64,000 nucleotides of DNA from Candidatus Woesearchaeota archaeon (GTDB lineage Archaea; Nanobdellota; Nanobdellia; Woesearchaeales; JACPBO01): contig JACPBO010000005.1 in the NCBI GenBank assembly GCA_016180285.1, forward strand, positions 48,189-112,188, written 5' to 3'. The position numbers were made by a program, and so were the translations under genes. Of this stretch, positions 15,888 to 64,000 are shown piece by piece (position 1 is the stretch's first letter; each line of letters starts with the position of its first letter). The notes beneath the pieces are model-generated. The model ran no database searches, was not told where the DNA came from, and saw nothing but the letters and a program-made list of their open reading frames with translations.

Positions 15888-15916
15888 TTTTATTTTCCTC
15901 GTTCATTTTATTTGCA

Positions 15917-16546: not shown

Positions 16547-16556
16547 CTTGCGCTTG

Positions 16557-16703: not shown

Positions 16704-16706
16704 TTT

Positions 16707-16967
16707 TCACCTCATGAATGGGTTGCCGAATGCAGCGAATGCAATTACAGCATGAAGCATTACAGATGCTGCTAAAAGCCACCAGTAATAGCAGTGATAT
16801 TTGTAGATTTTCATGTAAATCTTTGAATTGCTCAATGCTGCTGATTTTATGCCAATAATGCACCTGCATGAAAATAGAATCAAAAATAAAAAAACTATGT
16901 TTGCCCATCCCAATACATAAACGAACTTTATTCCGAGCGAAGGGTCTATTGCCATTTTACTCGACAA
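16707..16967 (-). CDS. Small membrane protein
   Basis: An 86-aa protein with two or three transmembrane segments. Confidence 0.3.
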   Translation of the reverse strand: MSSKMAIDPSLGIKFVYVLGWANIVFLFLILFSCRCIIGIKSAALSNSKIYMKIYKYHCYYWWLLAASVMLHAVIAFAAFGNPFMR

Positions 16968-17421: not shown

Positions 17422-17432
17422 CCCCTATCTGA

Positions 17433-17879: not shown

Positions 17880-17887
17880 TTTTCTCT

Positions 17888-19367: not shown

Positions 19368-20082
19368 AGTCTGTTATTGAAGCCAATTGACCCAAGATAT
19401 CTTCATTTTTGTCACCATAGCTTATAAGAATTTTATCTCCTTCGTTAAATACGTAATCTCTAAATTCAGTGTTTTCTTTCCTATTTATGTAAAATTTGAG
19501 GGATTTTTCTGCATTATTGCAATATTTTACTCCAGTATCTACTGTGAAGCAATCTTTTTCAAATTTCATTCCAATGCTTTCAAAGAAAATCCAAAGAGGA
19601 ACCCCTGTTGCATGCATATGCAAGACACTTGAAGCATCTTCTTTATTTAGGTTATCATCCACATGAATAAAACTGCTCTTCATATGATATTTTTCATTTG
19701 CGAAGTTAATTGAATTTCCATTTATAAAAACTTTAAAATCAGCATGGGTGTGCCCTGAACCAAGCACCCCAATCGTTGATTTAGAATCCATATTGCACTG
19801 CAGCTGGCCACTGTCTATGCATGCGCTTACATCCATGCCGCAAGCATCGCAAAGCCCATCATTATTTTTGTCCATTAATTTTCTGGCCAGTTGCTTATCA
19901 AAGGCAGTTAAAGCCATTTGGCTTGCAGAATGCATTTCAGTTAATTGTTTATTGGGATTATTGCCCTGAAAATTTAAAAAAGACACTGTGCTGAAGATCA
20001 AAGCAATAGCAGCTATAACTAAAAGCCCGTATAATAAATAATCCTCTTTGTTTTTTATTTTATTTGCTGTTTTTCTTTTCAT
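19351..20082 (-). CDS. Membrane-anchored extracytoplasmic Cys/His-rich protein, unknown
   Basis: Transmembrane anchor, then CDACGMDVSACIDSGQLQC and GSGHTHADFKVF...LHMHATG. Confidence 0.3.
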   Translation of the reverse strand: MKRKTANKIKNKEDYLLYGLLVIAAIALIFSTVSFLNFQGNNPNKQLTEMHSASQMALTAFDKQLARKLMDKNNDGLCDACGMDVSACIDSGQLQCNMDSKSTIGVLGSGHTHADFKVFINGNSINFANEKYHMKSSFIHVDDNLNKEDASSVLHMHATGVPLWIFFESIGMKFEKDCFTVDTGVKYCNNAEKSLKFYINRKENTEFRDYVFNEGDKILISYGDKNEDILGQLASITDFAKKH

Positions 20083-20663
20083 TTTTTCTCCATAAAAACA
20101 TTGTGCATGTATATTTTTCCACCGCCAGGCTCTGTGTGAATGGATTCTTTAATATAGGCTATTTTAAAAGGGCCTGAAAAATACCTTAAAATAGCCTCCT
20201 TTGAAATGCTCTTGTCAAAATGATTTTTATCGCTGAAGCACTGGATATAAACCCTGCCATTGCCTTTCAATAAATTAATAAGCCTTTTAACATATTTTGG
20301 CTTGTCTTTATCAGGGATATGGTGAAAGCATCCCCTGTCAAAAATAAAGTCAAATTTTTTGTTTGTCTTGAATTTCAATACCTTGCCTACAAGATAATTG
20401 CAAGCCAAGCCTTTTCTTAGGCACCTTTCTTTTGCCATATTTACTGCTGCAGGGGATATGTCAACTCCTGTAACCTTAAACCCCTTTGAAGCCAGATAAA
20501 TTGAGTTTGTACCTACTCCCGAACACATGTCAAGAACTTCTCCTGGCCTGATTTTACCCTGCTCAACAAGCTTCACAAGATTTTTTTCAGGATGTTCAGT
20601 ATGCCAGGGAATTTTTTCCAGCCTGTTCTCCCTGTATATCCTGTCCCACCCGTTTTTTTCCAT
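20079..20663 (-). CDS. Class I SAM-dependent methyltransferase
   Basis: VLDMCSGVGTNSIYLA (motif I) and FDFIFDRGCFHHI (post-I and II). Confidence 0.7.
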   Translation of the reverse strand: MEKNGWDRIYRENRLEKIPWHTEHPEKNLVKLVEQGKIRPGEVLDMCSGVGTNSIYLASKGFKVTGVDISPAAVNMAKERCLRKGLACNYLVGKVLKFKTNKKFDFIFDRGCFHHIPDKDKPKYVKRLINLLKGNGRVYIQCFSDKNHFDKSISKEAILRYFSGPFKIAYIKESIHTEPGGGKIYMHNVFMEKK

Positions 20664-20740
20664 TCTTGCCTTCGTATTGCTTAACTAGCTTGCTAGCAGC
20701 ATCCTTTTTTTCCTTTCCCCATTTTTGCACCTCATCCGCA

Positions 20741-21364
20741 TTATGATTTTTTAGCCACAAATATATTGGCATAACCTTTAAGCGCAGGAATTTTATTGAT
20801 AACTTTAAACTTATAGTATTCCAAATGCCTTTGAAAATCCCTGCTGAAAAAGTCATCAATGGCTTCTTTATCAATTATTCTCTCAATCCATTCCAATATT
20901 AAAAATGCTGTTGTTTGTTTTTTTGGCTCCACATATTCAACAAAAACCGCTGTGCCTCCTTTTTTCAATGTCCTGCAAATCTCTGCTATTGCCTTATTTC
21001 TGTCTTTGAATCTTAATTCATGCAACCCCAATGATTCGAATGCAATATCGAAGTAATTGTCTTCAAAGGGAATATTTTTTGCATCTGCAACAATGTATTT
21101 TGTGTTTTTGGAACTTGTTTTTTTCCTGGCTCTTCTTATCATATTTTCTGACAGATCAACCCCAAAAACATTGCCTTTGGCTTTTTCTGCAATCAGGCTC
21201 GTCAATGTTCCTGTGCCGCAAAAAAGATCCAGTATGTTTTTTGCATGCCCGATATCAACAGCATTTGCTGTGGCTTCCCTTAGCCTTTTCTCGCTTCCTA
21301 AAGGAAGCAAAAAGAGCCTGATTTCAAGGTCATAAAGCGCGCTTATTATTCCATTATAAAACAT
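20741..21364 (-). CDS. Class I SAM-dependent methyltransferase (UbiE/COQ5-like)
   Basis: ILDLFCGTGTLTSLIA, VFGVDLSENM and FDIAFESLGLHE. Confidence 0.7.
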   Translation of the reverse strand: MFYNGIISALYDLEIRLFLLPLGSEKRLREATANAVDIGHAKNILDLFCGTGTLTSLIAEKAKGNVFGVDLSENMIRRARKKTSSKNTKYIVADAKNIPFEDNYFDIAFESLGLHELRFKDRNKAIAEICRTLKKGGTAVFVEYVEPKKQTTAFLILEWIERIIDKEAIDDFFSRDFQRHLEYYKFKVINKIPALKGYANIFVAKKS

Positions 21365-21365
21365 T

Positions 21366-22190
21366 TTAGCTTACAGCTGCTGCTGATGACGATGCGTTTA
21401 TTATTGTGTTGTTTGCAATGTTTTTATAAACGACTTTCAGCACGCTCAAATCCCTGAAAATGTAGCTGCCGTCACCCTCAACTGATCCGACCTGCGGCCA
21501 AACTACTGCAAGCGAAGGATAGAGTCCAGCATCCTTTGACAATATGACTGTAGGCACAAATGTAATGTTGTATTTTCTAATCAGCTCCTTGCCTGTTTCT
21601 GATGAAATATCCGCGTATCTTTCTGCTGAAATGGCCATTCCAAAGTTTTGCGGATTTGAAAGTATTAGCTTATGGATTGTTACATTGTAGCAGGTTTTGC
21701 AGCTGCTGTCTGTCAGATATGTCAGCTCTACAAAGCCCTCTGCTTTTGATTTTGCAACATCAAAATAAGGGGGATTGATCAGCCTCAGGACGTAGCTGCC
21801 GTCTTTTTCCACACTCCCGATATCGCTCCAGACGCCTGTTATCTCTTTATATTGCGATGCTTCTTTTGAGAATACTAATGCCGGGAGCTTTAATATCTTG
21901 TATTTTTCAATTAATTGTTTTCCCTCTGCGCTGCTGGCATCAATTGTCTTTTCGCTTTCAAAGAAAATGCCTAAATTCTTTAGGGCAGGCACCAGGCCTG
22001 TCAAATCGCTGCAGCTATCGCATGAAGATGCTTTGAGGTAAATTGAAGAAATGCCTTTTTTAACAACTATTTGGCTGTTTATTCTGAATGTTATGAAAAT
22101 GTTTGTTAAGAACACTATCATGATAAGGGCAACAAGCAACAACTTGATATTTGTAAAGCCGAATTTTCTTTTTTTATTTTTTTCTTCCAT
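21366..22190 (-). CDS. Membrane-anchored protein with two tandem thioredoxin-like CxxC domains (PDI-like a-a' arrangement)
   Basis: Internal duplication of about 100 aa. Repeat 1 carries SSCDSCSDL...LPALVF...DIGSVEKDGSYVLR. Repeat 2 carries SSCKTCYNV...VPTVIL...QVGSVEGDGSYIFR. Both have the cis-Pro loop. Confidence 0.5.
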   Translation of the reverse strand: MEEKNKKRKFGFTNIKLLLVALIMIVFLTNIFITFRINSQIVVKKGISSIYLKASSCDSCSDLTGLVPALKNLGIFFESEKTIDASSAEGKQLIEKYKILKLPALVFSKEASQYKEITGVWSDIGSVEKDGSYVLRLINPPYFDVAKSKAEGFVELTYLTDSSCKTCYNVTIHKLILSNPQNFGMAISAERYADISSETGKELIRKYNITFVPTVILSKDAGLYPSLAVVWPQVGSVEGDGSYIFRDLSVLKVVYKNIANNTIINASSSAAAVS

Positions 22191-22207
22191 TTTTACCTCT
22201 CCAAATC

Positions 22208-22669
22208 CTAAATCCTGCAGCCTGTTAATTCCGAAAGCCTTTCAAAGCTCTGCACTTTTTCGTATCGTTCATTGTTTATTATCCATGTCGGAGTCACTTT
22301 TATATCTGGCCCTTTCTGGTAATCCCTGTAATCAACATACTTGAATGAGTTCCCGAACATTTTGGCCTGCTGCTTTGTGTACTGGCACCATTCAATTGCG
22401 CCATACATCACTGCTCCCTTTTCTTTTAAGCATTTTGCAAAATCATCATAGGCGCCTGGCTTTGATGCAGAATAGATGCTGTATGCCACAATAGCTATTA
22501 TTATAACAGCGATAACTGACAGGATTGTTATTTTATTTCTTTTTTTAGATGCTGCATTTTCTTTTCTTTCCTTATCCAGCTGCTCTCTCTGCTGCCTTAG
22601 CTGCTCTGCTTCCTCACGAAGCTTCTGCTGCCTTTTTTCATCCATCTCCTTTTTGCTTAATTCTTCCAT
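22208..22669 (-). CDS. Membrane-anchored thioredoxin-like protein (CxxT variant)
   Basis: Charged cytoplasmic N-terminus and one transmembrane segment, then YGAIEWCQYTKQQ, which resembles VKOR-associated Trx domains (YGAxWCxxC) with a single Cys. Confidence 0.45.
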   Translation of the reverse strand: MEELSKKEMDEKRQQKLREEAEQLRQQREQLDKERKENAASKKRNKITILSVIAVIIIAIVAYSIYSASKPGAYDDFAKCLKEKGAVMYGAIEWCQYTKQQAKMFGNSFKYVDYRDYQKGPDIKVTPTWIINNERYEKVQSFERLSELTGCRI

Positions 22670-22695
22670 TTTATTTCCTTGTTAAGGCAAATTAA

Positions 22696-22908
22696 TCAAA
22701 ACAACTCTTTAACTGAATTAATTTTCTCAACTGCATTGTTTGCGCCTGTATTTTCCGGCCCGATGACTCCGCAGCCGCCGCCAACTGGCCCGCTCGGTGG
22801 AGCGCTGCCGCTGCCATAATCGCCGCTTGAGCATCCTGCAACAAAAATTAAGCCAACAATCAATAACAACATTAATGCTGTTTTCATATTAGTTTTTTCC
22901 ATTTTCAC
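22696..22908 (-). CDS. Small lipoprotein with internal PVGGGCG motif
   Basis: Lipobox LIFVAGC followed by a Gly/Ser-rich stretch and VGGGCGV. Confidence 0.4.
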   Translation of the reverse strand: MKMEKTNMKTALMLLLIVGLIFVAGCSSGDYGSGSAPPSGPVGGGCGVIGPENTGANNAVEKINSVKELF

Positions 22909-22911
22909 ACC

Positions 22912-23112
22912 TCAACATCCGCCTACCATTCCGCTGGATGAGCTTGCTGCTGGCGCAGATGCTGCTGCACCTGAAGATGTTGCAGTTGCGCCTGAAACTG
23001 CAGCTGTTCCGCTGCTCAGCTTTGTTTTTATTGTGTTCAGCTCAAATGCCTGCACAACTGATACGAGCAATAAAACGCCCAATACAATTGCTATTATTAT
23101 GTTTTTGTCCAT
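22912..23112 (-). CDS. Small secreted protein ending in MVGGC-COOH (paralog family member 1)
   Basis: Signal peptide with predicted cleavage after VQA, an Ala/Ser/Thr-rich linker and the C-terminus SSSSGMVGGC directly before the stop. The stop codon was verified on the reverse strand. Confidence 0.45.
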   Translation of the reverse strand: MDKNIIIAIVLGVLLLVSVVQAFELNTIKTKLSSGTAAVSGATATSSGAAASAPAASSSSGMVGGC

Positions 23113-23140
23113 TTTTTACCTCCTCGATTATTCTTTAACT

Positions 23141-23434
23141 TCATTTTACTTTTTTAATCAATTTAACCAATAAATAAACAATCAAAACCAAAACAGCCAA
23201 ATACAAAACCTGTCCAATTAAGTATAAGCTGCTATAGCCGCCCATGTAGCCGGCAGTAATTGAATTTCCTGCCATCATTGAGCTGCCTAAATCGCTTACA
23301 GCCATGCCTGTTGCAGCTGGAGCCCCACTAGCTGCCTCGCTGTGATTATCCATTCCAGCGCATGCCAAAACCGGCAACGCAGTTAATGATAGCGCTAATA
23401 AAAAAAGCACAATCAATAAAAAGGACTTTTTCAT
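23141..23434 (-). CDS. Small Met-rich protein with signal peptide/lipobox-like N-terminus and C-terminal transmembrane anchor
   Basis: VLACAGMDNHSEAASGAPAATGMAVSDLGSSMMAGNSITAGYMGG followed by a transmembrane segment. Confidence 0.4.
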   Translation of the reverse strand: MKKSFLLIVLFLLALSLTALPVLACAGMDNHSEAASGAPAATGMAVSDLGSSMMAGNSITAGYMGGYSSLYLIGQVLYLAVLVLIVYLLVKLIKKVK

Positions 23435-23707
23435 TTAGCAGCCACCCACCATTGTTGGCGCGACAGATCCTGAACTGCTGCTTTGCCCGATTCTCGCAGG
23501 AATAGTTCCATGCATTTCATAATTCATTTTTTCGTTCTCTGTCCATCCTGTTGTGTCGAGCTTGCCGCTTGCTGCGGCGCTTACGCCTGTTGCAAGGCCT
23601 GCTGCAGGCACCTTGGACCTGATATCCATCAATTGGAATGCCTGAATAAACGAAACTATCAGGATAGCTGACAGAAAGACAACAATTATTGTTATTTTTT
23701 TGTCCAT
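23435..23707 (-). CDS. Small secreted protein ending in MVGGC-COOH (paralog family member 2); start taken at MDKKITII
   Basis: Its N-terminus is homologous to that of the 22912..23112 protein (MDKxIxI..VL..L.VS..QAF.L). C-terminus SSSSGSVAPTMVGGC. The ATG lies 1 nt after the stop of the upstream gene. Confidence 0.45.
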   Translation of the reverse strand: MDKKITIIVVFLSAILIVSFIQAFQLMDIRSKVPAAGLATGVSAAASGKLDTTGWTENEKMNYEMHGTIPARIGQSSSSGSVAPTMVGGC

Positions 23708-23708
23708 C

Positions 23709-24422
23709 TTAACAACCTCCAACCATTGCCCCGCCAGATGATGTTGCTCCTTTTTCTATTCCCCTGTATTTGTTTGATGCCAAATTGATGTAATTCAGCT
23801 CAATTCCCTTGGACTGCAATATCGCAGCTTTCTGCGTCATTATGCCGGGGAAAAACAATGTTTTCCATTTTCCAAGCTCTTCCAAAATCTCGTCATTTGT
23901 GAATTCACTTGGATGCTTGCTTACCAAATATTTTGCCAATCCGCGCATTGCACCGCTGTGGGCGCAGCCGCATGCAGCAGCCCCATTTTTAAAGATAATT
24001 GCCTCAGCTCCGCAGCAGTATTCGCAGCTTATCTGCGTGCCAACAGCTATATAGCGCTGCAAAGCATCCCCTGTTAATGTAATTGATCTATCATAAACGC
24101 TCATCTTATTTATCGCTGCATTCGCCTTTCTTGCATCATTCGGAGAAATATCATCATAGCTTAAGCCAAGTTCTGCTCCATAAATCTTTGGAATTCCTGT
24201 CGGAATAACAGAACCCTGCAGATTTGATGAGCTTACTGCTGTGCTGCCGGAGCTTGATGCTGTTGAAATGCCTGTTGCTGCAAATCTAGATCCAATGCTC
24301 GATATCTGCCATTGGTTAAAAATAACAAGCAGAGCGATAACAACTATCAGCCAAATGCTCAATTTGTTTATCGTTTCCTTTAAATTTGCTTTTTTGTTCT
24401 TAGATTCCATTTTTAATTTCAC
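23709..24422 (-). CDS. Membrane-anchored Cys-rich protein ending in MVGGC-COOH (paralog family member 3)
   Basis: Transmembrane anchor, Ser-rich linker, SCEYCCGAEAIIFKNGAAACGCAHSGAMRG and C-terminus KGATSSGGAMVGGC. Confidence 0.45.
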   Translation of the reverse strand: MKLKMESKNKKANLKETINKLSIWLIVVIALLVIFNQWQISSIGSRFAATGISTASSSGSTAVSSSNLQGSVIPTGIPKIYGAELGLSYDDISPNDARKANAAINKMSVYDRSITLTGDALQRYIAVGTQISCEYCCGAEAIIFKNGAAACGCAHSGAMRGLAKYLVSKHPSEFTNDEILEELGKWKTLFFPGIMTQKAAILQSKGIELNYINLASNKYRGIEKGATSSGGAMVGGC

Positions 24423-24471
24423 CCCTCAGTTTGCATAGTTTGTTTGTTTTCATTTAAAAACCTTATGTATT

Positions 24472-24993
24472 TTATTCTTTGCAGCAATCAATTATTTTCT
24501 TTACGATGTTTGCAAGCTTCTCCTTCCAGCTGCTGCTTTGAGTCTGGATCATTTCGCCTGATTTTATTAATTTCAGATTCAGGCTCCAAAATAAAGTGTA
24601 AAGGTCAAATGCATTCTTGAAAAACATCTGCGCTTTCGCATCGTCTTTTTTGCTTAAATGCTTATTCCCGACTTCAATCAGGCGCATGCTTGCCCCGAGC
24701 AGATGCTTGCTTATGCACCACACTTCGCCTTCAGGCTCTTTAACTATCTCCTTAAGCAGATTTTTTCTTAGCTCTCTTATTTGATTTAAAAGCTCAATGT
24801 AGCTCTTCTTATTCGTTTTCATTGCGCTGAAATACATGTGCTCTTCTATGCTTATAAGATTCATCAGCGCTATGCTCAGGTCTTCATCTGACGAAAGGTC
24901 AACTTTGCCTTTACTTTTAAGTTCACTTGCCCTTTTTACAAGCTCATTCACATCCATCTTAATGTTTTCAGCCATCATCTTATCGCCAGCCAC
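24472..24993 (-). CDS. hypothetical soluble protein
   Basis: A 173-aa protein with no motif. It is co-directional with the cluster and overlaps the upstream gene by 19 nt. Confidence 0.3.
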   Translation of the reverse strand: MAGDKMMAENIKMDVNELVKRASELKSKGKVDLSSDEDLSIALMNLISIEEHMYFSAMKTNKKSYIELLNQIRELRKNLLKEIVKEPEGEVWCISKHLLGASMRLIEVGNKHLSKKDDAKAQMFFKNAFDLYTLFWSLNLKLIKSGEMIQTQSSSWKEKLANIVKKIIDCCKE

Positions 24994-25487
24994 ACTATTG
25001 CGCTTGTTATTGCCAATAATGCCAAAATAAAAGCAATTGTCTGGAACGGAAATATAGCCTTGTTTTTGTTGATCTGCTTCACATTGCTGCTAATGAACAA
25101 TCCTGCATAAACTAAAATGCTGCCCGCTATTATGCCCAATAATAATTTATCTACTCCAAAAATCCTGCTTGCATTGAATAATCCTCCAAAATAAAATGAG
25201 ATTATTGTTGCAGCAAATATCAATATTGCAACAATTTGGCCTTGGAACGGGATGTATTTCTTCTTCAGCATGTTGTTGAACCATAATGCAGTTGAAATTA
25301 TAAATGCGCCGACCCACAGCCCGACAATCATATCATCAACGCCGTAAAATCTCGTGATAACGATTCCTGCGCCGACAGCAGCTGTGCATAGCGGGCAATG
25401 CGCGCTTACAAGCGGCACAAATGCAGTTAGCGAAAAGAACAGCATCAACATAAAAATCAGGCTTCTTTTCATTTTATTTTCACTCAT
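24975..25487 (-). CDS. Polytopic membrane protein with HCPLC in the first transmembrane segment (possible membrane thiol-oxidoreductase partner)
   Basis: Five transmembrane segments and SAHCPLCTAAVGAG in the first. Confidence 0.4.
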   Translation of the reverse strand: MSENKMKRSLIFMLMLFFSLTAFVPLVSAHCPLCTAAVGAGIVITRFYGVDDMIVGLWVGAFIISTALWFNNMLKKKYIPFQGQIVAILIFAATIISFYFGGLFNASRIFGVDKLLLGIIAGSILVYAGLFISSNVKQINKNKAIFPFQTIAFILALLAITSAIVWLAIR

Positions 25488-25933
25488 TAAGGCGGAAGGG
25501 GCGTCTTTGTTCCCATATCAGTATATCTTTGATCAACATATTTTGTGTCTATGTATTCCCTTGTCTCTTTCAATGACATGCCTTGCTTAAGCAGCTCGTC
25601 TGCCTTTAATGCTATGGCAACGCATGCAGGGCAGTCAATTGCAGCATGATCCTGCCAGCTTCCGTCTTCATTTATGAAGCATTCCTTGAGGCTGTGCATT
25701 ATCGGGATTGTTTTTCCCCTGTGCTGCATTTCATGCATGAAATCATCCTGCCTGTCAAGCGCAATGCTGTAAGCCAGCTTGTTTTTATAATTATTCATCA
25801 CAAAACTCGGCAGCATGTTTTCATTTGCAAGCATTGGCATTTGTTTTTTTGATGTGTTTAGTATGATTGCCAATGAAAAAATTACCAATACAATCAATGC
25901 CAATCCGGCAATCAGCTTTGTTTTTGCATTCAT
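25487..25933 (-). CDS. Membrane-anchored protein with CPAC motif
   Basis: Transmembrane anchor, then HAAIDCPACVAIALK. Confidence 0.35.
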   Translation of the reverse strand: MNAKTKLIAGLALIVLVIFSLAIILNTSKKQMPMLANENMLPSFVMNNYKNKLAYSIALDRQDDFMHEMQHRGKTIPIMHSLKECFINEDGSWQDHAAIDCPACVAIALKADELLKQGMSLKETREYIDTKYVDQRYTDMGTKTPLPP

Positions 25934-26214
25934 TTTAGCTTATCCAAGCATTTCTTGTATTGATCAGGGTGATGCCCCATATGCTCTCTCCATTCTTGAT
26001 CTGTGTAACCTTCAGGAGTTGCGCAAATATCTTCCTTGTTTTGGCTTTGAATTGCCTTATTGTAATTTGCGCCGAAATAGTTTTTTTGCGTTGTGAAGCT
26101 CAATACGCTCCATATCAGTGCTGCGATTAAAACAAATGCCGCAACATACAATATTATTTGGTCATATTTGATTTGATCGTGTTTTTTTGCCATATTAATG
26201 CAGAACAAGGCCAA
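25930..26214 (-). CDS. Small membrane-anchored protein with His-rich tail
   Basis: Transmembrane anchor, then EWREHMGHHPDQYKKC. Confidence 0.3.
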   Translation of the reverse strand: MALFCINMAKKHDQIKYDQIILYVAAFVLIAALIWSVLSFTTQKNYFGANYNKAIQSQNKEDICATPEGYTDQEWREHMGHHPDQYKKCLDKLK

Positions 26215-51727: not shown

Positions 51728-53143
51728 CTATTTTACCAGCCTCTTCAGTATTTCATTAACCTCAACAGGAGTTGCCTTGCCTTTTGTCTTCTTCATGACT
51801 GATCCTACGATAAAGTTAAGCGCCTTTTCATTGCCTTTTTTATAGTCTTCAGCTGCCTTTGGGTTCTCTGCAATTGCTTCAATGCAGAACTTCTCAAGCT
51901 CTTTTTTGTCAGAAACAGCTTCCATTCCCTGCTCTCTGACATATTTCTTTACGTCAAAAGGCGATTCAACTAATTTTTCCAGCAGCCTCTGGGCAACCTG
52001 TTCTGTTATAATCTTTTTCTCAACCAAATCAAGCAGATCAATGATGTGAGTTTCATCAATCTCCACTTCTTTCAAATCTTTTTTGATGTAATTCAAAACT
52101 CTTGGCAATTCCCTTCTCAGCCATTTTGCAGCCAATAGAGGGTCAATCTCTTTTGCAACCTGCTCGTAAAGCTCTGCGAGCATAAATTCCTGAGCTAAAA
52201 CTTCAGCATCTTCTTTTTTGAGCTTATACTGGGAAACAAAGCGCTTTGCCTTTTCATGCGCCAGCTCAGGCATTGCTTCCTTTATTCTTTCAACCAGTTC
52301 AGCGCTTATTTCAATTCTTGTTAAATCAGGCTCTATAATATAGCCATAATCCTCTTCTGTCTCTTTTGTTCTTAATAAAAATGTAGCCCCTTTTTCAGAA
52401 TCCCATGCCCTTGTCTCCTGCTTTAATTTTTTGCCTTCTTCGATTTCCTTCTTCTGCCTTTCAACTTCATATCTTAGCGCCCTCTCGATGTCCTTGAAGC
52501 CGGTTATATTCTTTACTTCTGCCCTTACATAGCCGCTTTCTCTTATCGAAACATTTGCATCTGCTTTTATTATTCCGCTGTTTGTGTCAAAAATCCTCAA
52601 ATATGCCAATATCGAAATGAGCTGGTTCATGAAATCGCGGGCTTCTTCCGGGCTTTCAAGCTCAGGCTTTGTAACAACCTCAACAAGAGGGTTGCCGCTT
52701 CTGTTGTAATCAACCAGAACAAAAGGAGACTGCTGCATTGATCCGATATGGACAAGCGAAGCAGGGTCTTCCTCAAGGTGCAGCTTTGTTATTCCGATTG
52801 TTTTTCCAGCTTTCAGCTTTAATTTTCCGTCTTTCGCCAATGGAACTTCATACTGAGTTATCTGGAAATTCTTTGACATATCGGGGTAGAAATAAGATTT
52901 TCTTGAAAAGGCAATTTCAGGCGAAACATCTGCGTCAAGGGCAATGCAGAGCTTCAATGCAAATTCCAGCGCCTCATGGTTTAATACAGGCTTGCTTCCC
53001 GGATGGCCTAAACAGACAGGGCAAGTTCTAGTGTTTGGATCTTCATTGCCTTTTGTTGCGCAGCCGCAGAACAGCTTTGTTTTTGTGTTGAGCTCTACAT
53101 GGATCTCAAGGCCGATTACGATGTCGCTTGTAAAGTTTGCCAT
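51728..53143 (-). CDS. gatB: Asp-tRNA(Asn)/Glu-tRNA(Gln) amidotransferase subunit B
   Basis: IGLEIHVELNTKTKLFCGC...PVCLGHPGSKP and the YqeY-like tail. Confidence 0.9.
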   Translation of the reverse strand: MANFTSDIVIGLEIHVELNTKTKLFCGCATKGNEDPNTRTCPVCLGHPGSKPVLNHEALEFALKLCIALDADVSPEIAFSRKSYFYPDMSKNFQITQYEVPLAKDGKLKLKAGKTIGITKLHLEEDPASLVHIGSMQQSPFVLVDYNRSGNPLVEVVTKPELESPEEARDFMNQLISILAYLRIFDTNSGIIKADANVSIRESGYVRAEVKNITGFKDIERALRYEVERQKKEIEEGKKLKQETRAWDSEKGATFLLRTKETEEDYGYIIEPDLTRIEISAELVERIKEAMPELAHEKAKRFVSQYKLKKEDAEVLAQEFMLAELYEQVAKEIDPLLAAKWLRRELPRVLNYIKKDLKEVEIDETHIIDLLDLVEKKIITEQVAQRLLEKLVESPFDVKKYVREQGMEAVSDKKELEKFCIEAIAENPKAAEDYKKGNEKALNFIVGSVMKKTKGKATPVEVNEILKRLVK

Positions 53144-53164: not shown

Positions 53165-54118
53165 CTATTTAAACCTTTGTTGCCTTATCCCTCTCATCGC
53201 CCGCTTAACATGCTTGTCCTGGATCTTGGACATTTTCAATCTTCTTCTTATCTGATCAACTGTAAAGCCAGCTGCCAGCGCTGCGAGTATGTATCTTCTC
53301 AGCTTCAGATCCCTTTCTATTGAAACAGCTTCTGATACTGCAATCTGCCTTGCTATGAGCAGGATCGCTGATATAACTGCGATTAATATTGCTATTGAAA
53401 TAAATCCTATCAGGATTATTCTTGCGTCGAGATTGAATTTTATTGGGCTGGCAGCAATTCTTTCTTCGCCATCGGGAATAAAAGGAAAGCCGGATTCTTT
53501 GCTCGTGTTGGATTGCTTTGATAGATTAAGGCCGCTGGCATTTTCTAAATTTTCTGCAATGCCCCCTCCAATGGCCGTATTTGTTAGATTTGTAATGTTT
53601 GTCAGGTTGGCCGAGTTAGCCATACTAAGGGTCGCATTTATTGTTTCATTGACCTTAATTGGTTTTTTTCCAGAAGCGCAATCTGCATTGTAAGTTCTGC
53701 CTAACGCTGCGCATGAATAAGCAAAACAACCCCCATTCAGGCAGTAATCATGCCTGCTTTCGGGATAATCAACAAAAAGCTCTCCTTCGCATTTATCCTC
53801 CGGGCATGTTCCTGGGCTGCCGCATGATGCATAATCAACCGGCTTGCCGCATATTGCCTCATAAGTGCTGTCATCGCAGTCTTTTCTGCATGGATTGTTC
53901 AACGCAGGGCAGCACCAGCTTCCAGCGCAGGCTGTTTTTTGCCCGCAGGAGCACCCGACAGCATCAACAACCAACGCGGTTGTGCCGGGGCATTTGTCAT
54001 TTGCATCCGGAACTCCGTCACGGTCGGAATCAGGAACTGCAAAGGCTATTTTTAATAAAACAAATAATAAAAAAACCGCTAAAATATAGAATTTAAAATT
54101 ATTTTTTTTCAAGCGCAT
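53165..54118 (-). CDS. Secreted Cys-rich protein with thrombospondin type-3-like Ca-binding repeat, a transmembrane segment and a basic cytoplasmic tail
   Basis: Signal peptide, DSDRDGVPDANDKCP (TSP3 motif), about 30 cysteines, N-glyco sequon stretch, a transmembrane segment and a C-terminal KHVKRAMRGIRQQRFK. Confidence 0.5.
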   Translation of the reverse strand: MRLKKNNFKFYILAVFLLFVLLKIAFAVPDSDRDGVPDANDKCPGTTALVVDAVGCSCGQKTACAGSWCCPALNNPCRKDCDDSTYEAICGKPVDYASCGSPGTCPEDKCEGELFVDYPESRHDYCLNGGCFAYSCAALGRTYNADCASGKKPIKVNETINATLSMANSANLTNITNLTNTAIGGGIAENLENASGLNLSKQSNTSKESGFPFIPDGEERIAASPIKFNLDARIILIGFISIAILIAVISAILLIARQIAVSEAVSIERDLKLRRYILAALAAGFTVDQIRRRLKMSKIQDKHVKRAMRGIRQQRFK

Positions 54119-54936
54119 TCACCTGCAAAATTAACATTCTTTACTGCAAATTGGTATATGAAAGAATGCGTGTACTTGTAATAAAATGTCTTGAAATCAA
54201 CCAGCTGCACGATTTCATTGTTTTTAAAATAGACATTAACATCATTATCAAACATACTGCAGCGCTGTGAAATGTCGTAAACTTGAGGCGGCTGGCTTTC
54301 CTTTGCAGCCTTTATTGCATTTGCCATCTCATTTGCTTTTTCATACAATAACCCGAGCCTTATCGGAAGCGCAACATTGAACTGCGACAATTCAGCTATG
54401 GAAGATTCCTTTTTTGCAGTTATTGGGTACTGCATTGAAACTGAAATATCCGCCTTGTTTATTTTAAAGCTCACTTTTATTTCATCCGCTTTTGTTACAT
54501 TATACCCCAGGTCTTTCAGCATATTGAAATCGATGCATTTGTCAACTTCTGCTGCAACATATTTTCCGGCTTCAGCTTCGATATTGCTGAGCGCAGGAAT
54601 AGAAATAGCTGCACCATCAAGATAATAAGGAATGTAATAAGTAATTTCGTTGTCACGGTATTGGGCATAGCTTACGCCTTCTTCTTCTTTTAAATAGCCT
54701 CCATGCAGCCCTATTTTTGAAAACACAGCATCCTGAGATGTCGTTTTCAGGCAATTCTCAATATATGTGCGGATCACAGTTGTTTCTACGCTGCCAATAG
54801 TTGCCTCAGCAACTGAGCTTTTCAGCTCGCTTGCCTGCCTGCTGCCTGCTATTGAAAAAACAATGATCAGAGAAATAACTAAAACAAGCCCTATTATAAT
54901 GAATACAGTTATCTGACCTCTTTTTTGCATAATCAT
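54109..54936 (-). CDS. Membrane-anchored extracytoplasmic protein, unknown
   Basis: An N-terminal transmembrane segment and 275 aa in total. Confidence 0.3.
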   Translation of the reverse strand: MIMQKRGQITVFIIIGLVLVISLIIVFSIAGSRQASELKSSVAEATIGSVETTVIRTYIENCLKTTSQDAVFSKIGLHGGYLKEEEGVSYAQYRDNEITYYIPYYLDGAAISIPALSNIEAEAGKYVAAEVDKCIDFNMLKDLGYNVTKADEIKVSFKINKADISVSMQYPITAKKESSIAELSQFNVALPIRLGLLYEKANEMANAIKAAKESQPPQVYDISQRCSMFDNDVNVYFKNNEIVQLVDFKTFYYKYTHSFIYQFAVKNVNFAGECA

Positions 54937-54945: not shown

Positions 54946-55086
54946 TTACTCAACTATCAGCCCGCAAACCCTGCAGATTAATTCGCCATCTTCAAAGACG
55001 ATCTTGCCGCCGCAGTCAGGGCATTTCTTTGGCTTGTCTTCGCTTTCCAAAGCTGCAACATCCTTCTGATTGCCCCAGTTTGTCAT
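54946..55086 (-). CDS. Stand-alone TFIIB-type zinc-ribbon protein (46 aa); below the ORF-track size cutoff
   Basis: MTNWGNQKDVAALESEDKPKKCPDCGGKIVFEDGELICRVCGLIVE contains C-P-x-C-G...C-x2-CG, as in the TFB N-terminal ribbon. Confidence 0.5.
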   Translation of the reverse strand: MTNWGNQKDVAALESEDKPKKCPDCGGKIVFEDGELICRVCGLIVE

Positions 55087-55088
55087 TT

Positions 55089-55571
55089 TTAAATAAATTG
55101 TCCTGTTTTTAAATTTCTTTTACAATTACCCCAAAAATAAATCCTTCCATGCATCGCAATATAAATTCCTTTTTTTAAAACATTTATTGCTCCAATTGCG
55201 ACTCCTACATTAAATGACGCATCAGAATTGGAAAATCTTTCTGGCTTCATCGCACCCGTAAGAATTATGGTTTTATCTTTTATACCGCTCAGTTTTTTAG
55301 CAGTTTCTAGCATAGTGTCTGTGCCATGAGTTATTATAATTTTATCAAAATTTAATTTTTTACAGGTTTCATAAATTTTATTCCTGTCTCCAGAAGTAAT
55401 ATCTATGCTGTCTTTTTTTAGAACTGAAATAATCCGGTATCTGAAATTAGGATTTGCCTTCTCTAAAATTCTTTTTACTGCAGGTTCAGAAATTTCAAAA
55501 GCATAACCTTTAGTTGCTTTTGGGTAATCCTTGTCAATTGTTCCGCCTGTTTGTATGAATAATATTTTCAT
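55089..55571 (-). CDS. Asparaginase-like (type I asparaginase / GatD N-terminal domain-like) mini-protein
   Basis: ILFIQTGGTIDK...IIITHGTDTM are the two Thr-containing asparaginase catalytic motifs. Only 160 aa, so a single domain. Confidence 0.55.
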   Translation of the reverse strand: MKILFIQTGGTIDKDYPKATKGYAFEISEPAVKRILEKANPNFRYRIISVLKKDSIDITSGDRNKIYETCKKLNFDKIIITHGTDTMLETAKKLSGIKDKTIILTGAMKPERFSNSDASFNVGVAIGAINVLKKGIYIAMHGRIYFWGNCKRNLKTGQFI

Positions 55572-56875
55572 TTTTCCACTGCGCTTCCTAATTGGATTAT
55601 TTTGCTCTCTTCGAGATGATCGCCAATAAGCATCATGCCAACCGGCATATTGCCTTTAAACCCGACAGGAATGCTCATATGCGGCAGACCGGCCAGATTA
55701 GGGCCGACTGTCATGATGTCCATCATGTAATTCTGCAAAGGAGTCAGCTTTTCTATCTCTTTTATTTTCGGCGCAGTTATTGGCATTGTTGGCGAGATCA
55801 ATGCATCATATTTTTTAAATAATTTTTTGTATTCCTCAATGATTTTTGTCCTGACTTTCATTGCTTTGATATAATAAGCATCCCTGTAGCCTGCCATTCT
55901 TGCGAATGTTCCTAAAATAATTCTTCTTTTTGCTTCCGGCCCGAAATTAAGCGACCTTACTTTAGAAAAATATTCATTGAAATTGCCTTCAAGCTTTTCA
56001 TGCTTCCCATATCTCATTCCGCAGTACTTTGCAAGGTTTGTTGATGATTCAGACATTGCGATAAGATAGTAGCCTTTGTCTGTTCCTTCGCCAAATGAGT
56101 CTTTTATAATGCCGATCTTCATTCCACCGCAATCCTTTCCAGCAGCATCTGTGTACTTATCCACATCCTTGCTTATTGTTGTTGATTCTTTTGGATCAAA
56201 TCCTGAAATTATTTCAAGCATCAGCGCAGCATCATAAACATTTTTAGCCATTGGACCTATTTTATCAAGGCTATTAGCGTAATCTATCAAACCATAGCGC
56301 GATACTCTGCCGTAAGTCGGGCACAACCCCACAATGCCGCAGAAAGATGCGGGATTGACAATAGAGCCGCCTGTGCTTTCACCCAGGCTTATATGCGGGA
56401 AAGATGCTTTTTGCGTGATTCCAGCGCTGCCGCCAGAGCTTCCTCCGCAGCTTCTTTCCCTGTCAAAAGGGTTCAGTGGAATTTTAAAGTCAATGCCTGT
56501 ATTGATGGAAAATCCGCCAAATCCAAATTCATCCTGCGATGTTTTTCCGACAATGATTGCCCCTTCCCTTATTATTTTTTCAACAACAGCTGCATTGAAA
56601 ACAGGATTGTAGCCTTTCAGTATTTTTGATCCTGCTGTTGATTCAACGCCATCAACGCAGATGCAGTCTTTTATCGAGACAGTCAGCCCAGCTAATCTTC
56701 CATGCGGCCTTTTTTCAATTACCTTTGCCTGGTCTAGCGCAAAATTCTCAGAAATTACATTGAAATAATTGTATTCGCTGTTTATCTTTTTTATCTCATA
56801 AATGGCTTTTTCTGTATTTTTAATTACATCAATCTCCCTGTTCTGTATTTTTTTGATGAAATCTATTATGTTCAT
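55568..56875 (-). CDS. gatA: Asp-tRNA(Asn)/Glu-tRNA(Gln) amidotransferase subunit A (amidase signature)
   Basis: GGSSGGSAG amidase signature, the Ser-cisSer-Lys triad context and a typical GatA N-terminus. Confidence 0.9.
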   Translation of the reverse strand: MNIIDFIKKIQNREIDVIKNTEKAIYEIKKINSEYNYFNVISENFALDQAKVIEKRPHGRLAGLTVSIKDCICVDGVESTAGSKILKGYNPVFNAAVVEKIIREGAIIVGKTSQDEFGFGGFSINTGIDFKIPLNPFDRERSCGGSSGGSAGITQKASFPHISLGESTGGSIVNPASFCGIVGLCPTYGRVSRYGLIDYANSLDKIGPMAKNVYDAALMLEIISGFDPKESTTISKDVDKYTDAAGKDCGGMKIGIIKDSFGEGTDKGYYLIAMSESSTNLAKYCGMRYGKHEKLEGNFNEYFSKVRSLNFGPEAKRRIILGTFARMAGYRDAYYIKAMKVRTKIIEEYKKLFKKYDALISPTMPITAPKIKEIEKLTPLQNYMMDIMTVGPNLAGLPHMSIPVGFKGNMPVGMMLIGDHLEESKIIQLGSAVEK

Positions 56876-57447
56876 TCTATTCTTATTGAGTTTATTTTAA
56901 CAGTTTCAAGGGGAACATCATCAAATCCATTTTTAGATCCGGTTTCAGCCAGGCCGATGGCATCCACAACATCCATTCCTTCGATGACCTTGCCAAAAAC
57001 AGCATAGCCGTATCCTCCGGGAGTTTCATCTCTGTGGTCCAGGAAAGGGTTGTCAATCAGATTTATGAAGAACTGCGATGTTGCACTGTCAATCATGCTT
57101 GTCCTTGCCATTGCTATTGTGCCCCTTAAATTTTTCAGGCTGTTTTTTGCCTCGTTCTTGACAAGAGGGGCATATGCATTCTTCTGGGCCAGATTCTCAT
57201 CCATGCCGCCGCCCTGTATCATAAATCCTGCTATTACCCTGTGGAAAACAAGGCCGTCATAAAATTTATTATTCGCATAGTTCACGAAATTATTCACTGT
57301 CAGAGGAGCATGCTCCCTGTCAAGCTCGACTTTTATTATGCCTTTTGACGTGTCTATGACTGCTATTTCTTTTTTTGTTTCGTCTGCCATTTTTGCGCAC
57401 CCCGCTATCAAAACAATCATTAAAACCAAGAATAATGCTGTTCTCAT
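56872..57447 (-). CDS. Cyclophilin-type peptidyl-prolyl cis-trans isomerase with signal peptide/lipobox
   Basis: FHRVIAGFMIQGGG...GTIAMAR...HVVFGKV, and an N-terminal LIAGC. Confidence 0.85.
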   Translation of the reverse strand: MRTALFLVLMIVLIAGCAKMADETKKEIAVIDTSKGIIKVELDREHAPLTVNNFVNYANNKFYDGLVFHRVIAGFMIQGGGMDENLAQKNAYAPLVKNEAKNSLKNLRGTIAMARTSMIDSATSQFFINLIDNPFLDHRDETPGGYGYAVFGKVIEGMDVVDAIGLAETGSKNGFDDVPLETVKINSIRIE

Positions 57448-57732
57448 TTAAACCGCCCTCGGCCCTTTGAAGTAGCCGTCCTTCTTATGCTCAGTCAATG
57501 ACAAAGCTTCTTCCTGCGTCAGGCATTTCTCAACTTTGTCTTCTCTCACAGCATTCTTCAGATCGATCGGCTGGAAACTCGGCTTTGCGCCTTTTACATC
57601 GATCTCGTCAAGCTTTGAAAATGCATCCAGAATTTCCTTCAGCTGCGGAAGGAATTTCTCAATCTCCTCTTTAGTTAATCTTAACCTTGCAAGCTCTGCA
57701 ACATGCTCTATAAGATCTTTGTCAACTTTCAT
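57448..57732 (-). CDS. gatC: Asp-tRNA(Asn)/Glu-tRNA(Gln) amidotransferase subunit C
   Basis: A 94-aa protein with IEHVAELARLRLTKEEIEKF, typical of GatC. Confidence 0.8.
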   Translation of the reverse strand: MKVDKDLIEHVAELARLRLTKEEIEKFLPQLKEILDAFSKLDEIDVKGAKPSFQPIDLKNAVREDKVEKCLTQEEALSLTEHKKDGYFKGPRAV

Positions 57733-61934: not shown

Positions 61935-64000
61935 CTATTTGCTGATCTCCACAACCTTCGCCCCAGTCACCCTCACAAGATCCTTTGCCCTCATCTTTAT
62001 TGATTTTGTGTGCATTCCCGCATTGAAGGCGATCTGATCGTTCTCTGTCAGCCTTTTGTCAACATAAACTTTGATGCCGAACAAGTTTCCGAAGGGAGGA
62101 ACTGCTCCGATTGAAACGCCGCTCAATGCTTTAACATCATCTGCATTTGCAAGTGAAACTGCTGATCCAACCACTCTTTTTGCCCTGTCAAGATCAAGCT
62201 CAGTAGCTGCAGAGATAATTAATTGCACAAAATTACTGCCTGCCTTGCAGACAAGCGCCTTTGCTCCCTGCTTCAATTCAGTTCCCCTGGCTTTTGCTGC
62301 TTCTTCTGATGTGTAAACAGGCTTGTGCTCCATTAACTCATAAGTTATATTTTCATTCTTCAGTGTTCCAATTATCCTGTCAAACAATGCATTCTTTTCA
62401 GGAACTTTCACAATATCCAGCTTCAGGCTCAGGTCCTTCAACTGCTCTTCAGAAACTTCAGAAGGAGATCCTTCCATCAAAGATTCAGCAGCTTTATTCT
62501 TTGGAAACGCGATAACTTCCCTTATCGATTCATTTCCAGTCATTAGCGCAGCCAACCTGTCAACGCCAAAAGCAATTCCTCCGTGCGGAGGAGCGCCATA
62601 TTTAAACGCGTCCAGTAAAAAGCCGAACTTGCTCTCTGCTTCTTTTCTTGTAATGCCAAGAACATCAAACATCTTCTGCTGCAGCTCGCTTCTGTGAATT
62701 CTTATTGACCCGCCGCCAATTTCAACTCCGTTAAGCGTCAAGTCATAAGCTTTGGCTTTAACTTTCGAAGGCTCTTTGTCAAGCAATGAAATGTCAGAAT
62801 CTTTTGGCGATGTAAATGGGTGATGAACTGCAACATGCCTCTGCAGGTCTTCATCAAACTCAAGCAATGGAAAATCTGTGACCCATGTAAAATCAAATGT
62901 ATTTGGCTTTATTAAATTTAATTTTTTTGCGAGTTCAGTTCTTAAGAATCCTAATGCGTTATTCACAACAAAATGCTTGTGGTCTGCAACAAACAATAAT
63001 AGATCTCCTTTTTCTGCATTCAATTTTTTAATTAAATCTTTTTGCGTTTTCTCATTGAAATATTTCACAATAGAGCTTTCCATCCCTTTGTCAGCCATCT
63101 TTATCCATGCAAGGCCTTTGGCATCGTAGATCTGGACAAAGCTTATGAAGCCGTCAATGTCGCTTCTTGAAAATTTATCTCCGACAGATTTTACATTGAT
63201 TGCTTTGACACAGCCGCCGGATTTTGTTACATTTTTGAAAACTTCAAAATCAGAATCCTTTGCAATATCACTTACATCAACAAGTTCCAGGCCAAATCTC
63301 AGATCAGGCTTGTCTGAGCCGTACTTGCCCATAGCTTCATCATATGTTATCCTTTTTATAGGAGTTTTGATGTCAATGTTTAAAACATCTTTCCAGACTC
63401 TTTTTATCAGTTCATCCATGATTGCATAAATATCCTCTTCATCAATAAAGCTCATTTCAACATCAATCTGCGTAAACTCCGGCTGCCTGTCTGCACGTAA
63501 ATCTTCATCCCTTAAGCATTTTGCAATCTGCAGATAGCGGTCAAATCCTGCGACCATTAATAACTGCTTGAACAGCTGCGGGCTTTGCGGCAGTGCGTAA
63601 AATTTCCCAGTATGAACTCTTGAGGGAACTAAATAATCCCTTGCGCCTTCCGGAGTTGATTTCGCCAAAAGCGGAGTTTCAATCTCCAGAAATCCTCGCT
63701 CATTAAAGTAATCCCTTACAATCTTGATCATCTTGTGCCTTAGAATTAAGTTCTGCTGCATTACCTGCCTTCTTAAGTCAAGATACCTGTACTTCAATCT
63801 TAAATCTTCATTAACAGGAAGCCTGTCCTCGATTTCAAAAGGAGGGGTTGCTGCTTTGTTCAGCACATTCAATTCATCAATCAAAACTTCTATATCGCCT
63901 GTTACCAGCTTTGCATTTTCCAGCCCTTTGCCCCTGTATCTGACAGTTCCTTTGACTTGGAGAACATCTTCCCTTGACAGATGCTCTGCTTCAGAATGGA
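61935..64000 (-). CDS. aspS: Aspartyl-tRNA synthetase, bacterial type with GAD insertion domain; N-terminal OB-fold region continues beyond right edge
   Basis: Class II motifs (FRNE-like region QIAKCLRDEDLRADRQPEFTQIDVE, GGGSIRIH, GIAFGVDRL) and a GAD domain. The frame stays open upstream of the ORF-track TTG to the window end (…GKGLENAKLVTGDIEVLIDELNVL). Confidence 0.9.
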   Translation of the reverse strand, partial: HSEAEHLSREDVLQVKGTVRYRGKGLENAKLVTGDIEVLIDELNVLNKAATPPFEIEDRLPVNEDLRLKYRYLDLRRQVMQQNLILRHKMIKIVRDYFNERGFLEIETPLLAKSTPEGARDYLVPSRVHTGKFYALPQSPQLFKQLLMVAGFDRYLQIAKCLRDEDLRADRQPEFTQIDVEMSFIDEEDIYAIMDELIKRVWKDVLNIDIKTPIKRITYDEAMGKYGSDKPDLRFGLELVDVSDIAKDSDFEVFKNVTKSGGCVKAINVKSVGDKFSRSDIDGFISFVQIYDAKGLAWIKMADKGMESSIVKYFNEKTQKDLIKKLNAEKGDLLLFVADHKHFVVNNALGFLRTELAKKLNLIKPNTFDFTWVTDFPLLEFDEDLQRHVAVHHPFTSPKDSDISLLDKEPSKVKAKAYDLTLNGVEIGGGSIRIHRSELQQKMFDVLGITRKEAESKFGFLLDAFKYGAPPHGGIAFGVDRLAALMTGNESIREVIAFPKNKAAESLMEGSPSEVSEEQLKDLSLKLDIVKVPEKNALFDRIIGTLKNENITYELMEHKPVYTSEEAAKARGTELKQGAKALVCKAGSNFVQLIISAATELDLDRAKRVVGSAVSLANADDVKALSGVSIGAVPPFGNLFGIKVYVDKRLTENDQIAFNAGMHTKSIKMRAKDLVRVTGAKVVEISK

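Follow-up and report, generated by a model that had tools for sequence, protein, structure and literature searches.

Which genes belong to an amidotransferase, and which merely share its operon? The question is raised by a 64-kb stretch of DNA (hereafter the window), analyzed together with 20-kb flanks, from a Candidatus Woesearchaeota (DPANN) metagenome-assembled genome, in which gatC, gatA and gatB, encoding the Asp-tRNA(Asn)/Glu-tRNA(Gln) amidotransferase GatCAB, are separated by five other genes. An initial annotation of the window had suggested that one of these, encoding a 160-aa asparaginase-like protein, could be an accessory subunit of GatCAB or a remnant of GatD. The locus is very probably a gatCAB operon carrying unrelated passengers, in which the 160-aa protein is a short-chain L-asparaginase (scASNase) of the RrA family, recently inserted and not a GatCAB subunit. 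The accessory-subunit reading fails for this asparaginase and for a cyclophilin encoded in the same array, and survives, as a lead only, for a zinc-ribbon miniprotein of 46 aa.

The 160-aa protein displays the TGGTIDK motif at residues 8–14 and the THGTDTM motif at residues 81–87, and both asparaginase-type threonines pointed out in the initial annotation are kept as catalytic residues (T11 and T84). Homologues numbered 3455; the best 120 of these were all full-length (about 157–190 aa, 68–79% identical) and came from Woesearchaeota, Aenigmatarchaeota, Nanoarchaeota and Patescibacteria, while a genome scan extended the family to Bacteroidota, Ignavibacteria, Acidobacteriota, Planctomycetota and the cultured Marinifilum flexuosum. 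A profile of 24 homologues matched RrA of Rhodospirillum rubrum (8UOO) with E = 1.4e-36 and 129 bits, the next best matches being two-domain asparaginases (E = 2.5e-16 or weaker, at most 63 bits); the closest relative in the comparison with GatD and the asparaginases was consequently the RrA short type, and not GatD. The AlphaFold2 (AF2) model of the protein (pLDDT 78) superposed on 8uoo at TM 0.83, and the top 25 Foldseek matches were all RrA chains (TM 0.79–0.84, 36–39% identity). Hairpin 11–24, a tetramer contact in RrA, had a pLDDT below 50 in this monomer model. The gene encodes the PF00710 domain alone, with no C-domain downstream, the next gene starting 2 nt after its stop. As the nucleophile Thr lies at residue 11, there is no room for a leader, and the protein should be cytoplasmic, without a signal peptide. 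By its sequence and predicted fold, it is a member of the RrA-type short-chain L-asparaginase family.

The prototype of the short-chain L-asparaginases, RrA, has 172 aa and forms a homotetramer in the cytosol (PDB 8UOO/8UOU; Zhang et al. 2024, PMC10949315). Its Km for Asn is about 3 mM with a kcat of about 58 per second, and it is an almost pure asparaginase with essentially no Gln hydrolysis (PMC10949315). The 160-aa protein resembles it in being a single asparaginase N-domain (about 160–172 aa) without a signal peptide and of the same fold. Of the active residues of RrA (Thr16, Lys19, Tyr21, Asp57, Ser58, Thr87, Asp88 and Lys158; PMC10949315), the equivalents of the first seven are retained as T11, K14, Y16, D54, S55, T84 and D85, each kept in at least 185 of 197 clade members. 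The two proteins differ in overall sequence (about 39% identity), at RrA Asn26, with which Lys21 aligns, and at the catalytic Lys158, replaced by Arg152; in the clade (n = 197) this position is occupied by R in 177 members and by K in 14. Lys158 is only moderately conserved in the scASNase family, yet the K158M variant of RrA is inactive (PMC10949315), for which reason asparaginase activity in the Arg-type clade (177/197) is presumed. They also differ in range: the clade of the 160-aa protein (68–79% identity) spans DPANN archaea, bacteria of the candidate phyla radiation (CPR), Bacteroidota and Ignavibacteria, and the published scASNase survey covered complete bacterial genomes only (PMC10949315). 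A literature search on N-domain-only asparaginases in DPANN found nothing relevant. The short-asparaginase family would thereby reach DPANN archaea and CPR bacteria, mostly with Arg at the catalytic Lys position, which bears on the proposed mechanism.

The gene lies in an array read from the minus strand in the order gatC, lipoprotein cyclophilin, gatA, asparaginase-domain protein, zinc ribbon, two surface proteins and gatB. The features of the array, and the synthetase gene at the window edge, are as follows.

57448 to 57732, minus strand: gatC, 94 aa, first gene of the array (PF02686 64.8 bits; TIGR00135 91.5 bits, cut-off 47.1).
56872 to 57447, minus strand: cyclophilin-type peptidyl-prolyl isomerase, 191 aa, with a signal peptide and lipobox LIAGC (PF00160 153.6 bits).
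55568 to 56875, minus strand: gatA, 435 aa (TIGR00132 423 bits).
55568 to 55575, minus strand: left copy of the 8-nt direct repeat AAAAATGA, where the gatA stop overlaps the scASNase start.
55089 to 55571, minus strand: short-chain L-asparaginase (scASNase, RrA family), 160 aa (PF00710 79 bits, residues 2–145).
55083 to 55090, minus strand: right copy of AAAAATGA, at the scASNase end and the zinc-ribbon gene start.
54946 to 55086, minus strand: TFB/TFIIB-type zinc-ribbon miniprotein, 46 aa, CxxC...CxxC (PF08271 26.5 bits, gathering score 29).
54109 to 54936, minus strand: 275-aa protein with a type IV pilin-type-looking N-terminal signal, MIMQKRGQITVFIIIG; passenger gene.
53165 to 54118, minus strand: surface protein of 317 aa, rich in Cys, with a signal peptide and, at its C-terminus, a transmembrane segment; passenger gene.
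51728 to 53143, minus strand: gatB, 471 aa, last gene of the array (PF02934 320 bits and PF02637 139 bits; NF004012 572 bits, cut-off 338).
61935 to 64000, minus strand: bacterial-type aspartyl-tRNA synthetase (AspRS), which has a GAD domain and, at its C-terminus, a YbaK-like editing domain; the gene runs off the window.

The open reading frames (ORFs) of the initial annotation are all present on the minus strand at the coordinates it gave. The asparaginase-like gene does stand between gatA and gatB as it described; gatB is not the next gene, nor within the range stated there, and is found about 2 kb farther (51728–53143), behind three genes. All eight genes of the array are co-directional and tightly packed, with successive spacers from gatC to gatB of 0, -4, -4, +2, +9, -10 and +21 nt. 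Because of these spacer lengths the array looks like one transcription unit, and co-transcription from gatC to gatB is probable. A promoter and terminator scan of 51.5–59.3 kb returned terminator-like matches at shuffle level (8 vs 6.8), with patterns that follow the bacterial consensus and are uninformative for an archaeon.

The history of the asparaginase gene was apparent from a syntenic locus of GCA_030651135.1 (L165), the nearest relative among those represented by a long contig. This locus displayed the order TrmB, HAD, gatC, cyclophilin, gatA, zinc ribbon, 273-aa and 307-aa proteins, gatB, Zip, Metallophos and DUF87, with protein identities to the window of 94% for GatA, 95% for GatB and 96% for the zinc ribbon. 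It harbored no asparaginase, and its zinc-ribbon gene directly followed gatA with an ATGA overlap. The gatA/zinc-ribbon junction reads GGAAAAATGACAAAATGG in L165, and GGAAAAATGA, the ORF and TTTAAAAATGACAAACTGG in the window. The insert is 485 nt long (483-nt ORF and 2 nt) and is bracketed by the duplicated AAAAATGA, whose two copies lie 485 nt from each other and which is present as a single copy in L165. With a GC content of 30.2%, the asparaginase gene has a GC content at third codon positions (GC3) of 20.5%, the lowest of the 82 ORFs in the window (mean 38.0%, sd 7.0; z = -2.5); in 80 other genomes the asparaginase gene matches the GC of its host (median difference -0.002).

No short asparaginase was found in any of 80 related gatA loci, a metagenomic set of close GatA relatives (53–74% identity). 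Five other DPANN contexts of the gene were all different and contained no gat genes, the neighbors being sugar-nucleotide, hydrolase, peptidase or enolase genes. A gain of the asparaginase gene in the recent past of this lineage appears to be the parsimonious reading. The proposal of the initial annotation that the 160-aa protein serves GatCAB or tRNA amidation as an accessory subunit runs counter to its absence from the syntenic L165 and from 80/80 related gatA loci, and to its unrelated neighborhoods elsewhere in DPANN. The proposal fails because the protein belongs to a known family and its gene is a recent, compositionally foreign, single-ORF insertion. The capture of one ORF at an ATGA stop/start overlap, accompanied by the duplication of 8 nt, would illustrate how compact DPANN operons gain passengers while translational coupling is left intact.

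The surrounding interval varied widely in the clade. Among the related loci, the space between gatA and gatB was either closed (less than 100 nt) or occupied by varied cargo, including Maf-like and patatin-like genes, small membrane proteins and multi-kb blocks. Given this variety, passenger insertion is commonplace there, and the gatA–gatB interval is hypervariable in the clade. One study (reference 33 of PMC8406222) reportedly, to go by its title, concerns a gatCAB operon that received a foreign gene, in another organism and with another cargo. In L165 itself, gatB is preceded by about 2.5 kb (11904–14427) that the window lacks and that encode an HMGL-like/Sua5 fusion protein on the opposite strand and a second TrmB regulator, a further sign that genes are readily gained and lost in this interval.

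The cyclophilin differed from the asparaginase in its distribution. Its PF00160 match spans residues 30–189, behind an N-terminus (MRTALFLVLMIVLIAGC) with a lipobox. The initial annotation had placed a lipobox cyclophilin between gatC and gatA with 4-nt overlaps on both sides; the gene and its position stand, as does the ATGA overlap of 4 nt with gatA, and on the other side the gatC TAA abuts the cyclophilin ATG with no overlap. The order gatC-cyclophilin-gatA recurred in 28/80 related loci, 21 of these 28 cyclophilins having a lipobox among their first 40 residues, and cyclophilin-positive loci were spread over a rough GatA neighbor-joining tree. The cyclophilin gene appears to be an old, vertically kept insertion. 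Being an exported lipoprotein, its product is unlikely to act directly on the cytosolic GatCAB.

The gat genes themselves are bona fide GatCAB amidotransferase genes. GatC and GatB pass their family models (91.5 vs 47.1 bits and 572 vs 338 bits), and the full-length GatA (L081) reaches 473 bits on TIGR00132, slightly below the cut-off of 481 and 180 bits above any other amidase model. The gatA of the window, at 435 aa, is 34 aa shorter than the 469 aa in two independent Logan assemblies of the same organism (L081 and L082). Compared with these, it shows a 102-nt in-frame gap at 56073/56074, the missing segment being EVKNKVMDAVKKLEKNNVEYEEVSLPLTYKYGIAC; the flanks of the gap are about 99.98–100% identical to both assemblies, and no obvious repeat was seen at the gap junction. 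The gap is either an assembly artifact or a population variant and, if the latter, would probably cripple GatA.

Upstream of the array, the AspRS is of bacterial type (NF001750 874 bits). The complete gene encodes 745 aa (L081, 1298–3535), with an OB fold, a catalytic core, the GAD domain and the C-terminal YbaK-like domain. An AspRS without its N-terminal domain was considered and rejected, as the gene is merely cut by the window end. gatC was found upstream of gatA in 62/80 related loci and aspS upstream of gatC in 21/80. The bacterial-type AspRS and the aspS-gat synteny fit tRNA-dependent (indirect) formation of Asn-tRNA, and the initial annotation was right to read the gat module and the GAD-domain AspRS as an indirect-pathway module, with bona fide gatC, gatA and gatB and AspRS upstream both here and in those 21 loci. 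No further class I or class II synthetase was seen among ten ORFs scanned in 1–45 kb, nine of which were the largest there.

A YbaK-like aminoacyl-tRNA editing domain (PF04073) was associated with the AspRS/GatCAB module across several loci. It is fused to the AspRS C-terminus here, in L132, in L134 and in a Patescibacteria locus whose AspRS has no GAD domain (L014, 6525–8390), and the AspRS of L129 has a matching partial YbaK-like hit at the contig end. Stand-alone YbaK-like genes lie directly 3' of gatA in L093 (2292–2615) and L124 (2553–3020), and near gatB in L149 and L153. No description of a YbaK-like/AspRS fusion was found.

These observations suggest a variant gatCAB operon architecture in DPANN archaea. 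As in the canonical gatCAB operon and Asn-transamidosome (non-discriminating AspRS, GatCAB and tRNA(Asn)), gatC, gatA and gatB are co-directional and a bacterial-type AspRS gene lies upstream. Here, in contrast, the three gat genes are split by five passenger genes, the AspRS bears a C-terminal YbaK-like domain, and the cyclophilin and zinc-ribbon insertions are recurrent in this archaeal clade. The gat genes would have stayed co-directional and translationally coupled while unrelated passengers accumulated. The cyclophilin would work outside the cell, probably tied to gat by co-transcription only. The TFB-type zinc ribbon would have been the original downstream partner of gatA, at whose stop the 485-nt single ORF would have been inserted, exactly at the overlap with the zinc-ribbon start, the AAAAATGA duplication keeping the coupling signals on both sides. 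Insertion at a coupled junction implies that the scASNase would be expressed from the gat operon without being a GatCAB subunit. By homology, it would be a cytosolic homotetramer converting L-Asn to L-Asp and NH3 with a millimolar Km, through its Thr11/Lys14/Tyr16 and Thr84/Asp85 sites. Its help to the pathway would be at most metabolic, turning free Asn, presumably unusable without asparaginyl-tRNA synthetase (AsnRS), into Asp and ammonia. The two surface-protein genes would complete the hypervariable gatA–gatB interval.

Several observations weigh against this explanation. Arg occupies the catalytic Lys position of the scASNase, and the co-transcription of the array is deduced from gene spacing. 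The direct repeats flanking the asparaginase ORF are also what a deletion in L165 would call for, since precise excision would give exactly the L165 junction. Finally, the scASNase gene adjoins Asp/Asn-tRNA genes in 2/80 other scASNase genomes, where chance would give roughly 0.3.

Of the inserted genes, the zinc ribbon is the one for which an accessory role deserves attention. The 46-aa TFB-like zinc ribbon that the initial annotation saw after the asparaginase-like gene was recovered as the ORF at 54946–55086. An exhaustive HMMER search gave about 20 ribbon-family representatives (38–64 aa) and a ribbon-family profile search 546 clusters, mostly of 43–50 aa, from Woesearchaeota and Nanoarchaeota; a single-sequence homologue search with the 46-aa ribbon returned its own cluster only. 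Named clusters were designated "TFIIB-type zinc ribbon-containing protein" or hypothetical, and PF08271 matches at E <= 1e-5 are on record for several relatives. The family consensus is M..KSLQGLxxEDKxKKCP[DE]CGS...F..GE..CKKCGLV[IL][ED]. The closest solved structure to the ribbon profile was the N-terminal ribbon of Pyrococcus furiosus TFB (1PFT, E = 4e-8), with which the miniprotein has in common the four-Cys spacing and the motif. It differs from TFB/TFIIB in being a stand-alone protein of about 45 aa with its own conserved N-terminal motif: the 46-aa ribbon ends five residues past the last Cys, without the B-reader, the B-linker or the two cyclin-fold domains.

Conservation of the ribbon next to gat genes elsewhere, a point raised in the initial annotation, was observed in 4/7 sampled representatives, with the ribbon directly after gatA. 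In P0121 (L165/L166) and P0129 (L180) it follows gatA with a 4-nt overlap; in P0127 (L173/L174) and P0139 (L175) the order is gatA-ribbon-gatB, the ribbon overlapping gatB in the former. Of the three other representatives, one follows a dCMP deaminase gene, one follows ATP synthase subunit D, and one adjoins class I lysyl-tRNA synthetase (LysRS) and PTH2. In the gatA-seeded set the ribbon again directly followed gatA in L125 and L137, that is, in 2/80 related loci. A hidden Markov model (HMM) scan of the window and the loci fetched by then found no further ribbon copies. A tblastn search of the ribbon against the short-asparaginase loci gave no matches, which indicates that the ribbon does not travel with the asparaginase. 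Among the inserted genes, only the zinc ribbon appears to have a recurrent link to gatA and gatB in different lineages.

A genuine GatCAB/AspRS accessory, for example a small subunit that stabilizes the transamidosome or binds tRNA, analogous to Hp0100 or to Trm112-type activators, is a tentative reading of the ribbon that we regard as somewhat unlikely. It would account for the position directly after gatA (4-nt overlap or 1-nt spacer) in four of seven independently sampled representatives, exactly between gatA and gatB in L173 and L175, and for the scattering of ribbon-positive loci over the GatA tree; one of the non-gat copies stands beside class I LysRS and PTH2. The ribbon gene is 97% identical to that of L165 at the nucleotide level, and the surrounding DNA 84–89%; the four differing codons (two synonymous, two non-synonymous) are too few for dN/dS to be interpreted. 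A Trm112p match fell near the threshold (21 bits, cut-off 22). Precedent is provided by Hp0100 (QueH), an accessory of the Helicobacter pylori Asn-transamidosome that stimulates GatCAB and stabilizes the complex (PMC8406222). The likeness lies in there being an extra GatCAB-assisting protein; the ribbon is unrelated to Hp0100 in sequence and size. Against an accessory role, three of the seven representatives are away from gat genes, and the presence of the ribbon in only 2/80 related gatA loci implies that GatCAB works without it in most relatives and that the ribbon is not essential to GatCAB.

Extended to the whole module, this reading would make the ribbon of about 45 aa an undescribed fourth component of the DPANN GatCAB/AspRS machinery (a subunit, a transamidosome stabilizer or a regulator), with the YbaK-like domains on AspRS and after gatA belonging to the same lineage-specific elaboration, a picture we consider doubtful. 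A literature search on a zinc ribbon with GatCAB in archaea, or on GatCAB in DPANN, found nothing relevant. Both the gatA-associated TFB-like miniprotein and the YbaK-like domain on AspRS or at gat loci offer testable leads on indirect aminoacylation in reduced archaea.

A comparable alternative to the accessory role is that the ribbon acts on transcription, as a TFB-ribbon decoy or mini transcription factor on the RNA polymerase dock, its place after gatA being a historical accident. This too is unlikely. The relationship to 1PFT, the shared CPxCGS...GExxCxxCGxV motif and the PF08271 matches across the ribbon family speak for it. The 1PFT sequence in the alignment lacks the conserved N-terminal KSLQGLxxEDK extension, however, and a general transcription factor would not be expected to show so strong a preference for the gatA 3' end in separate lineages.

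Could the asparaginase have been recruited to the indirect pathway without touching GatCAB? It would then be expressed alongside GatCAB and the non-discriminating AspRS, and scavenged Asn, useless without AsnRS, would be converted to Asp for tRNA(Asn) charging and to ammonia, the coupling being metabolic and not physical. The gene overlaps gatA by 4 nt (ATGA) and is 2 nt from the next gene, the catalytic Thr residues are intact, and the aspS-gatCAB synteny supports use of the indirect route. As to the two adjacencies mentioned above, a gap of 29 nt separates the scASNase gene from the downstream aspS in L014 (5983–8390), from Patescibacteria, and in L044 (432–1349), from Micrarchaeota, the scASNase gene is divergent from gatC-gatA. 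The expectation of about 0.3 adjacencies, with P of about 0.04, is a rough estimate and no formal test; set against it, the two cases keep the metabolic link alive. Recruitment is nonetheless improbable, given the absence of the gene from L165, whose GatA is 94% identical, and from 80/80 related gat loci, and the unrelated scASNase neighborhoods elsewhere, among them those of Bacteroidota with a ThrC-like enzyme and RidA.

Outside DPANN and CPR, the commonest scASNase neighbor was a ThrC-like pyridoxal phosphate (PLP) enzyme of about 400 aa with an N-terminal zinc ribbon, identified by eye in 17/80 loci at a median distance of about 50 nt; L007 (7449–8669) is one of these 17 Bacteroidota-type loci. 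RidA-like genes, also identified by eye, lay near the scASNase in four loci (e.g., L068, 6504–6893). The Bacteroidota neighborhoods point to general amino-acid metabolism, and the ThrC-like and RidA neighbors hint at an undescribed amino-acid pathway for the scASNase family.

If the asparaginase were instead ancestral at the site and had been deleted in L165 by recombination between the AAAAATGA repeats, the same junctions would result. This is very unlikely: the GC3 of the gene is the lowest in the window, all 80 related gat loci lack it, and in L125, L137, L173, L175 and L180 gatA is followed by the zinc ribbon with no asparaginase.

To read the 160-aa protein as what is left of GatD, the partner of GatE, or as a GatD-like glutaminase supplying ammonia to GatB, is almost certainly wrong. 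The matches to GatD models are weak (NF003217 41.6 bits, TIGR02153 34.4 bits), and the Thr motifs are common to the asparaginase superfamily. The GatD scores fall far under the cut-offs (310 and 324) and are also lower than those for the type I asparaginase model (57.6 bits) and for RrA (129 bits), and the 160 aa face models spanning 420 and 405 positions. Homologues that are short, full-length and up to 79% identical (the best 120 of 3455) show that it is not a decayed fragment, RrA does not hydrolyze Gln (PMC10949315), and no gatE was seen in the window, where the local GatB scores 191 bits on the GatE model (cut-off 456). GatD belongs to the same superfamily, with the same Thr motifs, and generates ammonia in tRNA amidation; it differs in its length of about 420 aa, its extra N- and C-terminal domains, its pairing with GatE and its hydrolysis of Gln, whereas here the scores on GatD models are about one tenth of the cut-offs, with gatA and gatB as partner genes. 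The remnant of the initial annotation was rejected accordingly, and neither a mini-GatD nor an asparaginase subunit of GatCAB is supported; the gene would be a recent insertion from a described enzyme family.

Pfam searches gave no significant match for the 275-aa protein and no match for the 317-aa protein encoded between the zinc ribbon and gatB. The former has a counterpart at the same position in L165 (82% identity), and the latter is 78.5% identical to its L165 counterpart. The 317-aa protein is rich in Cys, carries a membrane anchor at its C-terminus and includes a DSDRDGVPDANDKCPG motif that is thrombospondin-type-3-like. In the archaeal genome L002 (5331–5858), the short asparaginase adjoins a homologue of the 275-aa protein (33% identity). 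Elsewhere in the window, a long series of small co-directional minus-strand ORFs at 14660–26214 resembles a ribosomal-protein cluster.

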